A stretch of 64,000 nt of DNA from contig JAIRWI010000030.1 in NCBI GenBank assembly GCA_031269095.1, positions 27,212 to 91,211 of the forward strand. The letters run 5' to 3'. The translations under genes and the position numbers were made by a program. Shown here piece after piece: positions 12,397-58,420 of the stretch (position 1 is the first letter of the stretch; every line of letters begins with the position of its first letter). The DNA is from Holosporales bacterium (lineage in GTDB: Bacteria; Pseudomonadota; Alphaproteobacteria; RUG11792). The notes beneath the pieces are model-generated. The model had not been told where the DNA came from. It did no database searches and saw nothing but the letters and a program-made list of their open reading frames with translations.

Positions 12397-12540
12397 TATA
12401 CTCACCTCCATATTCTCTAGAACTTATACTAGAAACAAATGGAAATAGGTTAGTTTTTTAAAACATATTTTAAGGAATTTTAGGGGTTTTTATGTATTTG
12501 TTAATACTAATGTAAATTAGTGCAACTCTAAATTCTATAG
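12397..12540 (+). repeat. R1 MITE-like unit, subfamily R1b, head at left (extended head region)
   Basis: Starts tatactcacctcca. Core ggaaataggttagttttttaaaacatattttaaggaattttaggggtttttatgtatttgttaat. Ends ctaaattctatag. Confidence 0.65.
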
Positions 12541-12684
12541 TGGGATTTTGGGGATGTTTAAAAAGCAAAATAAGAAATATTATAAAAAATTATAATTCAT
12601 TAAACAAAATATTAGATCACATAACGAACAGATAGTTTTAGTATACTAAGAAATCTTTACATTTTTGTTTGCTAAGGTGTAAAG

Positions 12685-12795
12685 TATAGTTATGCTAGTT
12701 GACATGGGTATTAACAAAATTGCTAAAACTCCCCCCCTGTAATTTCAGGGGATGTAGTTTTAAAAATTAACCTGTCGCTAACTAGAATGAGTGTA
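12685..12795 (-). repeat. R1 MITE-like unit, subfamily R1b, head at right
   Basis: tatagttatgctagttgac...gtaatttcaggggatgtagttttaaaaattaacctgtcgctaactagaatgagtgta. Inverted partner of 12397-12540. Confidence 0.7.
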
Positions 12796-12901
12796 AGATA
12801 TGTATAACACAAATTTTATACATATTAGAGAAAATAGAATAATAAACTTAAAAGCTTTAATTTTGCTCTAAATTAAGGGAAAAGAGCTAACTTAAAATAA
12901 A

Positions 12902-13017
12902 TATAGTTGTTTAACTTGACAACCAAGTAAATTTCTCCAGAATCATTGGGGTTTTGATGTTTATATTAACTTGGTCACCAGATTAATCAGGTGTATCTAG
13001 AGAAAAATTCAACTATT
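12902..13017 (-). repeat. R1 MITE-like unit, divergent subfamily R1c
   Basis: tatagttgtttaacttgacaaccaagtaaatttctccagaatcattggggttttgatgtttatattaacttggtcaccagattaatcag closely parallels 54383-54487. Confidence 0.6.
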
Positions 13018-13106
13018 ACAAGATTTAGGTGGGTTATCATTGCGTTGAGTACGAAAAAAATATATATTCTATGGGTTACTATGTTTATGTATGCTAAGCC
13101 ACCAAA

Positions 13107-14261
13107 GTGTCATATATTTCGTCAAATTATACTACAAAGAAAAGGCCGAGTACTTGGGTAAATCCAGAACATGAACAGTATGTCGTATTAGAGAATATTT
13201 CAAAATCTTATGGTGATGTACAAACTGTCAAAGACATTTCTTTGTCTGTTAATAAAGGAGAATTATTTACTCTCCTTGGGGGGTCTGGTTGTGGAAAAAC
13301 AACACTTTTGCGTATTTTGGCTGGATTTGAAAAACCAACATCTGGTCGGATTTTAGTAGATGGTATAGATATAACTAATCTTCCAGCATATAAGCGGCCA
13401 GTTAATCTTATGTTTCAGTCGTACGCACTTTTCCCTCACATGAATGTTTATCAAAATATCGCCTTTGGTCTCAAAAACGACAAATTATCAAAATCAGTGA
13501 TTAATGATAGAGTGAAAGAGGTTTTAAATTTGGTACAACTTTCTGGTTTTGAAGATAGAAACACAGACCAGCTTTCTGGCGGGCAAAAACAAAGAATAGC
13601 ACTTGCAAGAAGTATTGCTAAGAGACCAAAACTTTTACTACTTGATGAGCCGCTTGCCGCCTTGGATAAAAAACTCCGCGAGCAGACCCAGTTTGAATTG
13701 GTTAATATTCAAGAAATGGTAGGAATTACCTTCATAATGGTCACTCACGATCAAGAAGAGGCAATGACAGTGTCATCTAGAATGGGAATAATGGAGGATG
13801 GTCGCATAAAACAAATTGGAATTCCACATGATATCTATGAATTTCCAAATTCAAAGTATGTTGCGAAGTTTATAGGAGATATTAATCTTTTTGAAGGAAT
13901 TATTACGGAATCAAATATGGACTACGTCATTATTGAATCGAATGAAGTGAATGATTGCATATTCTATGCAGCACATACAGGAGCGATCCCTATCAATTCT
14001 TCGGTTACCTTAGCTATTCGTCCAGAAAAAATCATGATATCCAAGACAAAGCCTGTATATGATAATAACTGTACATCTGGAATTGTTCGAGAAATTGCTT
14101 ACTTGGGTGATATTTCCATTTACCATATCGAATTGAATTCGGGAAAAATTGTTAGAGCAACTTTACCAAATTTACTAAGAATGTCAGAAAGAACTATTGA
14201 ATGGGAGGATATGGTATATATTTTTTGGCGTTCTGAAAATAGTATAGTGTTAACATCATGA
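13107..14261 (+). CDS. potA: spermidine/putrescine ABC transporter ATP-binding protein
   Basis: 384 aa, GTG start. Motifs LLGGSGCGKTT (Walker A), LSGGQKQRIALAR (signature) and LLLLDEPL (Walker B). C-terminal TOBE-like domain. Confidence 0.88.
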   Translation: MSYISSNYTTKKRPSTWVNPEHEQYVVLENISKSYGDVQTVKDISLSVNKGELFTLLGGSGCGKTTLLRILAGFEKPTSGRILVDGIDITNLPAYKRPVNLMFQSYALFPHMNVYQNIAFGLKNDKLSKSVINDRVKEVLNLVQLSGFEDRNTDQLSGGQKQRIALARSIAKRPKLLLLDEPLAALDKKLREQTQFELVNIQEMVGITFIMVTHDQEEAMTVSSRMGIMEDGRIKQIGIPHDIYEFPNSKYVAKFIGDINLFEGIITESNMDYVIIESNEVNDCIFYAAHTGAIPINSSVTLAIRPEKIMISKTKPVYDNNCTSGIVREIAYLGDISIYHIELNSGKIVRATLPNLLRMSERTIEWEDMVYIFWRSENSIVLTS

Positions 14262-55902: not shown

Positions 55903-56285
55903 AACATCTCTTGTTTATAAAAAAACCAAACTACGATGGAATTTTACCAGATTTTTAATCGAAAGACCAATTACAGATAATCTCTTACTTAATTCCTTAA
56001 TTATTATAACCCTTTATAAAACAATTATAATAAATAATCAATAAATATTTTTAATAATTAACAATAATTGTTATATAACAAAACAATATACTATAACATA
56101 TCTCTGTTTGCAATTTAATAAAGAAGCTAGTAATAGGATCTAATCTGAAAAAGATATAAAATGCAGTTCTATGGGGATATAGCCTGCAGTGAAGCCATGT
56201 CGTCTATTAACACTAAAATTAGCTTTACTTAAAGCATTTTTTAAAAGAAAATTTGTGATAATGGATTTTAAAATATATATTAACC

Positions 56286-56870
56286 ATGGCAAAACTCTAC
56301 TTTTATTACTCCGCAATGAACGCTGGAAAAACAACAAAACTCTTACAGAGTAGTTTTAACTATAGGGAGAGAGGAATGGGAACCATACTCTACACATATA
56401 AATTTGATAATCGCTTTGGAAATCCAAAAATATCTTCACGAATTGGGCTGTCTGATGAAGCTTTTCTATATGATAAGGATTTTAATATATATAGTGATGT
56501 TTTGAATAGAAAAGGCGAAAAAACCGCCTGTGTACTTGTTGATGAAGCGCAATTTTTAACTAAATCCCAAGTTAGTCAATTGTGCAAAATTGTGGACGAT
56601 ATGGATATTGCTGTTCTTACGTATGGACTTCGTACGGATTTTTTAGGGGAAGCATTTGAAGGGAGCTTGTATCTTCTTCTCTGGGCTGATGAATTGATAG
56701 AGGTTAAAACTATATGTCATTGTGGAAAAAAAGCTATAATGAATGCGAGATTTGATGCAGGTAGAAATTTCCAGAAATCCGGAGAACAAATCGATATAGG
56801 GGGTAATGAAAAGTATGTCTCTTTATGCAGAAAGCATTATAATGAGAGAAATGTCGGAGAACAAGCCTAA
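56286..56870 (+). CDS. tdk: thymidine kinase
   Basis: 194 aa. Motifs [10 protein letters not shown] (P-loop), VLVDEAQF, and the Cys pairs CHCGKKA...SLCRKH. Confidence 0.93.
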
Positions 56871-56930
56871 AAAATTTGGTTTTTTATGTGTATTATTGGT
56901 TTGTAGCTTTTGCATTAATCATAAAACAGA

Positions 56931-58313
56931 ATGACCAAAAAAGTTGAAATAGACTCCAGAAACGTTCAGAAGGGGGATATTTTTGTCGCTATTCCATGTT
57001 CTAATTTTGATCGCAATGTGGAGGAGGCAATCCGAAATGGTGCTTCCATTATTGTATCAGAAAATAACAGTATAGGAGATTTACACACTACAGACGCCAG
57101 ATTAATTGCATCAAAACTAGCTGCATTTTGTTATAACGGTAACAATGAACAACGGATAAATAATTGTGTTGCAGTAACGGGAACTAATGGAAAGAGTTCT
57201 GTTGTACATTTTTTAGGAGAAATTTGGAAACATAATAACATAAACTCAGCTTGCCTTGGCACAAATGGAATGTATATAAATGGCATTAAAAATAACACTT
57301 CTACTAATTTAACAACCCCAGACTGTGTAACTCTTCATAAAATAATTTCATCCTTGAGTAGAGAGCATAACATAGAGTACTTTGCATTCGAAGCTTCAAG
57401 CCATGCGCTTGCTCAAAAAAGGCTACACAGTGTTAGTCTCAAAGTTGCAGCTTTCACTAATCTAGGTTCCGACCATCTTGATTACCATGAAACTAAGGAA
57501 GAATATTTTCTTGCTAAACAAAAAATCTTTACTGAAATTGGAGCAGATTATTCAGTTTTTTCGAAAGATGACCCATATGTTTTCAACACTCTTTTCAGTT
57601 TATCTCATAAAAACATCACGACTTTTGGATATAGTTCATTTAATGATATTTATCCAATAAATATTCAAAATTTAAATAATATGGATTTGTTTGATTTAAA
57701 CATAAAAGGCGAAATATATAAAAATATATTTATCAAAATGTTTGGCAAATTCCAAATACTTAATGTATTATGTGCTTGCTCAATAGCCCTGTCACTTGGT
57801 TTAAAAATATCTGATGTGGTCAACGTTTTGGATAAATTAACCCCACTCGAAGGAAGAATGGAACACGTCACATCATATAATGGTGCAGATATATATGTCG
57901 ATTATGCACATACAATAGAAGGATTCCGTAATTTGCTCTTAACTGTTAAATATATTTGTAGAGGGAGGCTTATTACTGTTTTTGGTTGTGGAGGGGATAG
58001 GGATAAAAGTAAACGCTCAGTTTTTGGAGAAATTGCTGGGGAAATAGCTAATATAAATATAATTACAGATGACAATCCAAGAAGCGAAGATCCAGGATAT
58101 ATTCGTAAAGAAATAATAAAAAACTGTAAGAATGTAGAGGAAATAGCTGATAGAAAAGAGGCTATAAAACATGCTATATCTTTGTTAGAAAATGGGGATA
58201 TTATGGTAGTTATAGGTAAAGGCCATGAAACTACCCAAATTTATAAGAAAAAAATTCTTTCTCACAATGACAAAGAGTTTGTATTAGATAGTATCCCCAA
58301 CTCCACTGGGTAA
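56931..58313 (+). CDS. murE: UDP-N-acetylmuramoyl-L-alanyl-D-glutamate--2,6-diaminopimelate ligase
   Basis: 460 aa. Motifs VTGTNGKSS, FEASSHAL and TDDNPRSEDP. DNPR is the meso-DAP-specific motif. Confidence 0.92.
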   Translation: MTKKVEIDSRNVQKGDIFVAIPCSNFDRNVEEAIRNGASIIVSENNSIGDLHTTDARLIASKLAAFCYNGNNEQRINNCVAVTGTNGKSSVVHFLGEIWKHNNINSACLGTNGMYINGIKNNTSTNLTTPDCVTLHKIISSLSREHNIEYFAFEASSHALAQKRLHSVSLKVAAFTNLGSDHLDYHETKEEYFLAKQKIFTEIGADYSVFSKDDPYVFNTLFSLSHKNITTFGYSSFNDIYPINIQNLNNMDLFDLNIKGEIYKNIFIKMFGKFQILNVLCACSIALSLGLKISDVVNVLDKLTPLEGRMEHVTSYNGADIYVDYAHTIEGFRNLLLTVKYICRGRLITVFGCGGDRDKSKRSVFGEIAGEIANINIITDDNPRSEDPGYIRKEIIKNCKNVEEIADRKEAIKHAISLLENGDIMVVIGKGHETTQIYKKKILSHNDKEFVLDSIPNSTG

Positions 58314-58314
58314 C

Positions 58315-58420
58315 TATACTCACTCCAGTTAGCGAAGAGATAATTTTTCAAAATCTATCCCAAGAATTATTGATGTTTTAGGTATATTTATCGATATCAA
58401 TTTTAAATAGAACAACTATA
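58315..58420 (+). repeat. R1 MITE-like unit, subfamily R1a, head at left
   Basis: tatactcactccagttagcgaagagataatttttcaaaatctatcccaagaattattgatgttttaggtatatttatcgatatcaattttaaatagaacaactata. Starts 2 nt after the murE stop. Confidence 0.8.

Follow-up and report, generated by a model that had tools for sequence, protein, structure and literature searches.

Here we show that the intergenic spacers of a 64,000-nt stretch of DNA from a Holosporales bacterium (assembly GCA_031269095.1, contig JAIRWI010000030.1, positions 27,212 to 91,211; the window) hold a family of ~107-bp repeats, which we name R1 and which comprises 18-19 units of about 100-112 bp, in both orientations, in 11 spacers. [quoted passage not shown] This reading draws on the structure of the ends, on their likeness to the termini of broken IS630 elements in a related genome, and on one R1 copy that lies inside a decayed IS630 transposase gene.

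A dispersed repeat family in the intergenic spacers

Repeats of 77-114 nt with 74-89% identity, both direct and inverted, were recovered when the window was searched for repeated sequence. A first hidden Markov model (HMM) built from seven copies of subfamily 'a' (R1a) scored those seven at E 1e-24 to 1e-31 and five copies of other subfamilies at E 2e-4 to 6e-10, and iteration with nhmmer gave 17 full-length copies at E<1e-12 together with a weaker one at 12895-12994. An earlier note on this DNA had described such a family, in both orientations in the spacers; the repeat search and the HMM, the kind of comparison it had proposed, found the similarity among the units that it listed, every sequence string that it quoted lies where it had been placed, and the copy at 10150-10259 falls outside the interval that it gave. 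Three or more subfamilies (labelled 'a' to 'e') align with one another end to end, in agreement with the claim that they form a single family. Pairwise identity is 74-85% within R1a (mean 80%) and 42-75% between subfamilies, and the conserved core is limited to AAAAATTA and the ends. With the TATAG arm first, the consensus reads nTATAGTTGTTCnAGTTnACATT...AAAAATTATCTnTTTGCTAACTAGAnnGAGTATA.

The copies and the elements associated with them are as follows (coordinates of the window, strand, description).

10150-10259, minus: R1 copy of divergent 'e' type in the ++ spacer 10091-10358 (nhmmer E 5.9e-15 after iteration)
12350-12645, plus: degraded 3' portion of a transposase gene of the IS630 family (DDE_3), including its right terminus (...AGATAGTTTTAGTATA, ending at 12645), interrupted by R1 (tblastn, blastn, Pfam, peptide alignment)
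12425-12530, minus: R1 copy of 'b' type, lying within the IS630 remnant at a TTAA site (nhmmer; a 105-nt deletion restores the frame)
12684-12795, plus: R1 copy of 'd' type with a G+C-rich central hairpin (CCCCTG...CAGGGG, then a T run; nhmmer E 2.3e-22; fold z -3.8; terminator-like site 12734-12751)
12895-12994, minus: R1 copy of 'c' type, L-type ends on both sides (82% identical to 54383-54489; weak nhmmer match, E 0.0047)
16503-16609, plus: R1a copy that, with a solo inverted L-type terminal repeat at 16618-16636, makes up the insert inside a copy of repeat family F (nhmmer E 1.6e-25)
16706-16813, plus: R1 copy of 'd' type, near-perfect R-type ends on both sides and the most stable hairpin of the family (nhmmer E 3.3e-22; fold -28.7 kcal/mol, z -5.8)
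28739-28845, minus: R1a copy whose L end abuts element G (nhmmer E 1.4e-22)
28847-29069, plus: element G, 223 bp, ends TATCACCCACTCTACTTAAC ... CTAACTTTAACTAGAATGAGTATA (terminal repeat match 29051-29069)
29141-29219, minus: R1 copy of 'b' type without L arm, joined to the next copy (repeat search, nhmmer, sequence)
29217-29323, plus: R1a copy; the stop codon of gene 29398-29967, on the minus strand, is 74 nt away (nhmmer E 1.8e-23)
32054-32286, minus: element G again, in a more decayed copy, within the divergent csp-dnaG spacer (nhmmer E 2.7e-16; alignment)
36058-36164, minus: R1a copy downstream of rpoD (nhmmer E 4.6e-23)
36948-37054, minus: R1 copy of 'b' type upstream of gltX (nhmmer E 5.5e-18)
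40925-41035, plus: R1 copy of divergent 'e' type, starting at the stop codon of the open reading frame (ORF) 40548-40925 (nhmmer E 5.4e-14 after iteration)
42245-42345, plus: R1a copy in the convergent asd-dnaB spacer, its R arm 15/19 identical to the IS630 terminus of a related genome (nhmmer E 6.3e-20; blastn of the IS relic to 42316-42349, 76% over 34 nt)
54068-54252, plus: nest of two R1 copies, in which a 'd'-type copy, 54092-54197, separates the L arm (54068-54090) of the older one from its body (54205-54252) (nhmmer 54095-54196 E 1.1e-19; fragments E 0.57-0.93)
54259-54365, minus: R1 copy of 'b' type (nhmmer E 9.5e-21)
54383-54489, minus: R1 copy of 'c' type, preceded by a solo R-end fragment, 54367-54384 (nhmmer E 7.6e-13; terminal repeat match)
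54479-54584, plus: R1a copy, 16 nt from the ffh stop codon (nhmmer E 1.3e-20)
58315-58421, minus: R1a copy beginning 1 nt after the murE stop codon (nhmmer E 5.4e-24)

The R1 copies span 1,882 bp, and all repeats combined ~2.9 kb. The spacers had been described as long; several of them, according to a six-frame Pfam scan, contain small genes, all on the minus strand: a cold-shock CSD protein (csp, 31665-31870), the exonuclease VII small subunit (xseB, 48986-49183), GatC (5086-5379) and a YGGT-family protein (22269-22568). Subtracting these four reduces the apparent 9,010 bp of spacer to a true ~8.0 kb, so that R1 accounts for ~23% of the intergenic DNA.

As the earlier note had stated, the units appear to be non-coding: stops occur in all six frames of most copies, and nhmmer found no significant R1 match within a coding sequence (CDS) of the window. 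A reading of R1 as the debris of a repeated protein-coding gene, or as a segmental duplication confined to this region, could appeal to the fact that in several copies some frames remain open for 28-35 codons. These frames are the same in related copies, however, and thus are not independent evidence. When the three longest stop-free R1a frames were compared with 5.8 billion proteins, a database that includes the RpoD of this same metagenome-assembled genome (MAG), none was found to share three 5-residue words with them. The six-frame stops, this protein search, the placement of the copies in 11 different spacers, in both orientations and with unrelated flanks, and the genuine terminal inverted repeats described below together refute the reading, whose probability we put close to nil.

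Terminal inverted repeats and two types of end

The terminal inverted repeats (TIRs) of R1 are ~19 bp long (about 19-24), TATAGTTGTTCCAGTTAAC ... GCTAACTGGAGCGAGTATA, and enclose a non-palindromic body of 70 nt. Two measurements confirm that they are real, as had been claimed: a degenerate TIR, TATASTYRYTCYAGTTRRC, gives 28 matches with at most three mismatches against 0.85 expected from shuffles, and the terminal 19 positions of the two arms pair in 72% of cells, compared with 30-42% for slid partners. There are two forms of end, or arm types: L (TATAGTTGTTCCAGTTAAC) and R (TATACTCGCTCCAGTTAGC, written from the outer side inwards). Most units combine L with R; copy 16706 has R at both ends, and the 'c' copies have L at both. 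Solo R1 ends are found as TIR matches at 16618-16636, 54069-54087 and 54368-54386. All complete copies read TATA...TATA.

Element G, at 223 bp, also has R1-type (R-type) ends; its copies lie at 28847-29069 and 32054-32286. The spacers are nests of such units: that between infB and ffh, 629 bp long, holds five R1 copies and additional fragments, and copy 54092 splits an older one. One 'head' listed in the earlier note, at 12397 (TATACTCACCTCC...), proved not to be an element end; it belongs to the IS630 transposase remnant, where it supplies the codons for VYSPP (...VYSPPYS...).

Two R1 copies start at, or 1 nt past, the stop codon of the upstream gene (40923-40928, ORF 40548-40925; and 58311-58315, murE), and the original stop codons may have been pushed aside, or provided, by these insertions. 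Also palindromic is a second family, F, with a length of 109 nt and a ~20-bp TIR (GAGAAGTTGGTTTTTTTATCAC), which is unrelated to R1 at the HMM level; its copies are 28532-28640, 16419-16505 with 16650-16672 (split by R1 insertion) and a partial one at 58421-58506.

The R arm resembles IS630 termini

A contig (L002) of the related MAG GCA_031275915.1 ends in a DDE_3 fragment with the C-terminus ...LPPYSPDLNPIERFWSWLKRQIRSIMNKFTSLGEAIDHVFVN, and the same assembly holds three further 3' relics of an IS630 transposase gene. The four relics can be aligned through ...GTTAATTAGATGGAGTATA and diverge beyond it, which places the IS terminus 10 nt past the stop codon. The terminal 19-mer so defined is identical to the R-arm consensus GCTAACTGGAGCGAGTATA at 13/19 positions and to TCTAACTAGATCGAGTATA of copy 42245 at 15/19, and the TAG that serves as the stop codon stands at an equal distance from the end in the relic terminus and in the R arm of R1. 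By blastn the similarity between R arm and IS relic extends over 34 nt, at 76%. A position weight matrix (PWM) built from 13 R arms was used to scan 132,660 positions in 66 kb of the relatives' loci; its four best positions were exactly the four relic termini, at 16.2 bits, with the runner-up reaching 13.8.

The tip is shared by other IS630 elements of this subgroup. The metagenomic element L019 ends ...GTTAGCTAGTTTTAGTATA, with a tip (...TAGTTTTAGTATA) identical to the terminus of the IS630 remnant in the window, and a second one, L020, is bounded by [TA]TACTAATCAGCATTGAC ... GGTTAGTA[TA]. The ends of a distant Piscirickettsia IS630 are TATAGCTGACACGG ... CCGGGTTAGCTATA, in short form TATAGCTGAC.../...GTTAGCTATA. 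As a candidate for the IS end, the motif TAGTTGTT...TTGAC, ~110 nt beyond the IS stop codon in L002, was ruled out, given that the four-copy alignment puts the terminus 10 nt after the stop.

GCA_031275915.1 contains many broken IS relics, of several kinds (IS630 DDE_3 3' stubs, DDE_Tnp_1 and Y1_Tnp), at L002 12150-12528, L015 2990-3405 and 6023-6099, L016 3001-3238 and L017 205-313. Another repeat, TTGTCTCACATGTGTTTGA.CTTGGTCAA, adjoins two of the IS630 stubs.

An R1 copy inside an IS630 remnant, and the target sites

No transposase ORF had been reported from the window. This holds for intact ORFs; a decayed IS630 remnant is nevertheless present at 12350-12645. Compared with the window by tblastn, transposase fragments match at 12498-12623 (E 1e-8), and the DNA of the remnant is 70% identical to an IS relic over 93 nt (blastn). 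The remnant resumes upstream of the R1 copy at 12425-12530, with ~65 codons covered in all, and its terminus, ...AGATAGTTTTAGTATA, ends at 12645. Deleting the 105 nt from 12426 to 12530 restores both frame and homology (...PPYSLELNSIVGFW...), giving the peptide ...EAECALVYSPPYSLELNSIVGFWGCLKSKIRNIIKNYNSLNKILDHITNR* and an alignment that runs without gaps across ...LVYSPPYSLE/LNSIVGFWGCLK... The reconstituted peptide aligns with transposase P0123 without gaps (27/51 identical, E 2e-19), matches annotated IS630 transposases on plasmids (tblastn), and hits Pfam DDE_3 at E 1.4e-5, its 25.4 bits lying below the 28.6-bit gathering cut-off. Since homology is restored on removing the 105 nt, the window contains a decayed IS630 copy into which R1 was inserted. 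In the main spacers that lack R1 copies, the six-frame Pfam scan yielded small genes only and no further transposase remnant.

The target of this insertion can be read by comparison: the reference has GATCT-TA-ATCC and the window GAACT-TA-[TACT...CAACTC]-TA-AATTC, with TA on each side and one extra A. The TTAA site fits a T[TA]A duplication within 1 nt and rules out one of more than about 4 bp. Where the R1 copy at 28739 abuts element G, at the junction 28845/28847, the sequence is CAACTA-TA-TATCAC, one TA being common to both. The involvement of an IS630/Tc1-mariner type of TA duplication had been offered as speculation; the homology of the R end, the insertion at the TTAA site and the single TA between abutting elements now support it. 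Likewise, the TIRs, the non-coding units and the insertion into the IS630 remnant favour the suggestion that R1 is a non-autonomous, MITE-like mobile element.

Insertion is also evident, by comparison of occupied with uninterrupted sequence, for the composite R1 insert at 16506-16632, which interrupts a copy of family F as the unit at 12425-12530 interrupts the IS remnant. A 17-bp direct repeat, 16489-16505 and 16633-16649 (TATAAGTTTCCAGGTAT / TATAAATTTCCAGGTAT), flanks this insert at 16.5 kb; positions 73-89 of the F model occur on both sides of it and once in the uninterrupted F copy 28532-28640. If the element is read as TAG...CTA, the duplication takes the form TA-N10-TA. It is possible, as an idea rather than a result, that it arose by two ends integrating at different TA sites.

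This duplication is also one reason to consider that R1 was moved by an enzyme of another kind, its likeness to IS630 being coincidental or convergent: either a transposase of IS4 or IS481 type, which makes long duplications, or a RAYT/IS200-like enzyme that uses hairpins as substrate, as with REPINs. We consider this quite improbable. Apart from the insert at 16.5 kb, no R1 unit has flanking direct repeats beyond chance, the site in the IS remnant excludes a duplication of such length, and the long duplication itself starts and finishes with TA under the TAG...CTA reading. An intact IS630 is indeed absent from the window, and the Correia elements offer a precedent for TATAGT tips and TA duplication with no known transposase; yet the best PWM matches fall exactly on IS630 termini. 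A Y1_Tnp fragment is present in GCA_031275915.1, but a RAYT or Y1 gene was found neither among the ORFs of the window nor in its main spacers without R1, and R1 ends in true terminal inverted repeats, not in subterminal hairpins.

Several observations nonetheless count against deriving R1 from IS630. Only one insertion site could be reconstructed for a TA duplication, with a fit no closer than 1 nt, while the second reconstructable site, that of the insert 16506-16632, is flanked by a duplication of 14-17 bp, not 2 bp. The L-type arm is not tied to the left end of an IS: a suggestive TTGACATT block stands at the same offset in L020, with a low PWM score. Past about 34 nt, homology between the interior of R1 and the IS is not detectable, and the comparison relied on IS termini of other organisms (RpoD is 66% identical in the case of GCA_031275915.1). 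Within the window there is neither an intact transposase nor a full-length IS with both matching ends.

Folding and genomic location

An alternative raised in the earlier note, that R1 is a REP- or RPE-like structured module, is not supported by the folding results. In its fuller form, the units would be structured RNA or DNA modules selected by the host (of REP/BIME, ERIC or SPRITE-like type) at the 3' ends of genes, where they would act as terminators, mRNA stabilisers, RNase III targets or protein-binding sites, with transposition secondary or ancient. We consider this unlikely. Four copies do fold far better than shuffles, two carry terminator-like hairpins on the sense strand, and covariation in the terminal stem (0.264 vs 0.197) was reached by only 1/500 shuffles; but the other 14 of the 18 are no more stable than shuffles, whichever strand is folded, and RNAalifold predicts no consensus pair. 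At gathering thresholds, the sole Rfam match in the window is tRNA-Cys, with none for R1. The folding and Rfam checks thus gave neither a family-wide structure nor a known RNA family. Consensus scans of three regions showed no enrichment of terminator-like or promoter-like sites, the former occurring in only two copies, and a divergence of 15-26% among copies, without a conserved core except AAAAATTA and the ends, is hard to square with host selection.

All 18 copies considered lie in spacers that contain a gene 3' end, with none in ~1.4 kb of divergent spacer, and four end 0-16 nt from a stop codon. The same strand faces the upstream transcript in 8 of the 10 copies in tandem spacers, and in 6 of the 7 R1a copies when convergent spacers are assigned to the nearest gene. 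These biases of orientation and location are weak, however (P about 0.03-0.06, with clustered copies), purifying selection against insertions in promoters would yield the same pattern, and the 223-bp relative G does occupy a divergent spacer.

A proposed origin and the age of the burst

The IS630-related MITE reading can be cast as a mechanism. An R1 unit would be a non-coding element of ~103 bp whose TIRs of ~19-24 bp imitate IS termini. An IS630-type transposase, supplied in trans, would bind both ends, excise the unit and insert it at a TA, duplicating that TA and so producing TATA...TATA, which may be read as [TA]TAG...GTA[TA]. Insertions would persist where they do little harm, that is, downstream of genes, within other repeats and within the IS itself, and because they survive in such places the spacers would become nests of copies. 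We infer mobilisation in trans, TA duplication as a general rule, and present inactivity. The burst of R1 in this genome is old: divergence among the copies stands at 15-26%, and the one IS copy visible survives as a broken remnant.

A doubtful extension would make R1 more than a set of fossils. After the parent IS630 had died, in part because R1 had inserted into its transposase gene (a course proposed for RUP, the pneumococcal repeat discussed below), copies in one orientation could have been kept at gene 3' ends as modules for transcript ends or stability; the transposase could, in addition, have been able to join two ends at separate TA dinucleotides, giving the TA-N10-TA of the insert at 16.5 kb.

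Distribution and known counterparts

Two patterns were used to look for R1 elsewhere, a right-arm pattern of 34 nt, with five matching copies in the window, and a TIR-pair pattern, with three. The right-arm pattern had no match in 185,579 species genomes or in JGI metagenomes. The TIR-pair pattern matched 2 stretches in species genomes and 8 in JGI metagenomes, none of which matches the family HMM (best E 0.044), and they are therefore taken as chance matches. No R1 hit was obtained in ~54 kb around rpoD in the nearest relatives, nor any blastn match in plasmids. As far as could be searched, R1 is restricted to this lineage, and it is the record of an IS630/MITE burst not found in the loci of the nearest sequenced relatives. 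In one of the relatives' OmpA-family genes (L003 8959-8978, L004 6245-6264) the R1 end PWM has a high scorer, TATATTCGTTTTAGTTGGTT, at 16.3 bits, which is probably a chance match.

R1 shows the features by which prokaryotic MITEs are recognised, being a small dispersed multicopy unit with TIRs, no capacity to code for a transposase and evidence of insertion; an R arm similar to IS630-family termini is a feature of the RUP kind. RUP, the MITE of IS630-Spn1 in Streptococcus pneumoniae, is the closest published analogue. It is 107 bp long, intergenic and present in many copies, with IS630-like TIRs and TA targets, and it inserts into IS transposase genes and inactivates them (PMC2229807). R1 resembles it in size, intergenic multicopy distribution, IS630-like TIRs and insertion in a transposase gene, and probably in insertion at TA. 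RUP copies, however, are highly conserved and thought to be still mobile, whereas R1 copies are old (74-85% identity), fall into several diverged subfamilies with mixed ends (L-R, R-R and L-L) and have no intact cognate IS in the window. The likeness is one of features, and no sequence similarity would be expected with a Holosporales alphaproteobacterium as host.

The Correia/NEMIS elements of Neisseria are likewise of comparable size (107 and 155 bp), with long TIRs that start TATAGT, a terminal TA, TA duplication, and nested or clustered intergenic copies. Their repeat, TATAGTGGATTAACAAAAATCAGGAC, cannot be aligned with the R1 end TATAGTTGTTCCAGTTAAC past the first six bases; the 26-bp Correia repeat does not occur at R1 ends, the tip TATAGT alone being common with tatagtggattaacaaaaatcaggac. 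Promoters, an IHF site and RNase III substrates, which Correia elements have, are not evident in R1. Rickettsia palindromic elements (RPEs) are also palindromic repeats of 105-146 bp in an AT-rich obligate intracellular alphaproteobacterium, some with TA at both ends. RPEs keep an open frame, often lie in frame within protein and RNA genes and have no known link to a transposase, whereas R1 contains stops, with no copy in a CDS and no protein carrying its translation.

Type II MITEs (for example Coxiella QMITE and cyanobacterial IS630-related MITEs) have only the terminal region in common with the parent IS and occur as size variants, decayed partial copies and nests (PMC10969869). R1 has the same terminal-only likeness, variants and nests; it differs as a lineage-specific sequence family, not found elsewhere in the searches made. 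Unlike the REP/REPIN-RAYT system, R1 has no short REP palindromes in inverted pairs, but terminal inverted repeats around a 70-nt non-palindromic body.

These results account for about a quarter to a third of the intergenic DNA examined from an uncultured, protist-associated lineage, and the copy at 12425-12530 is a clean example of a MITE inside its own parent transposase gene. Knowledge of how MITEs work is unchanged by them. On the practical side, the HMM and the TIR pattern can be used for masking, and the repeats explain contig breaks in MAGs of this lineage and could act as a strain marker.

Gene context of the window

The G+C content of the window is 29-42%, and its housekeeping genes are alphaproteobacterial (thrS, hisS, dnaE, dnaG-rpoD, gltX, asd, dnaB, miaB, nusA-infB, ffh, murE and mutL). 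The RpoD that it encodes (MDR1488577.1, from the Holosporales MAG) is only 67% identical to the next most similar RpoD. At 23856-25628, on the minus strand, lies tssF, a baseplate gene of type VI secretion (TIGR03359, E 5e-105). Three ORFs, at 11549-12292, 25717-27684 and 46077-48572, contain in-frame tandem DNA repeats with periods of 93 nt, 63 and 54 nt, and 123 nt, respectively, and match no Pfam or NCBIfam family; the second sits in a patch of 42% G+C. All three may encode surface or effector proteins of the symbiont.

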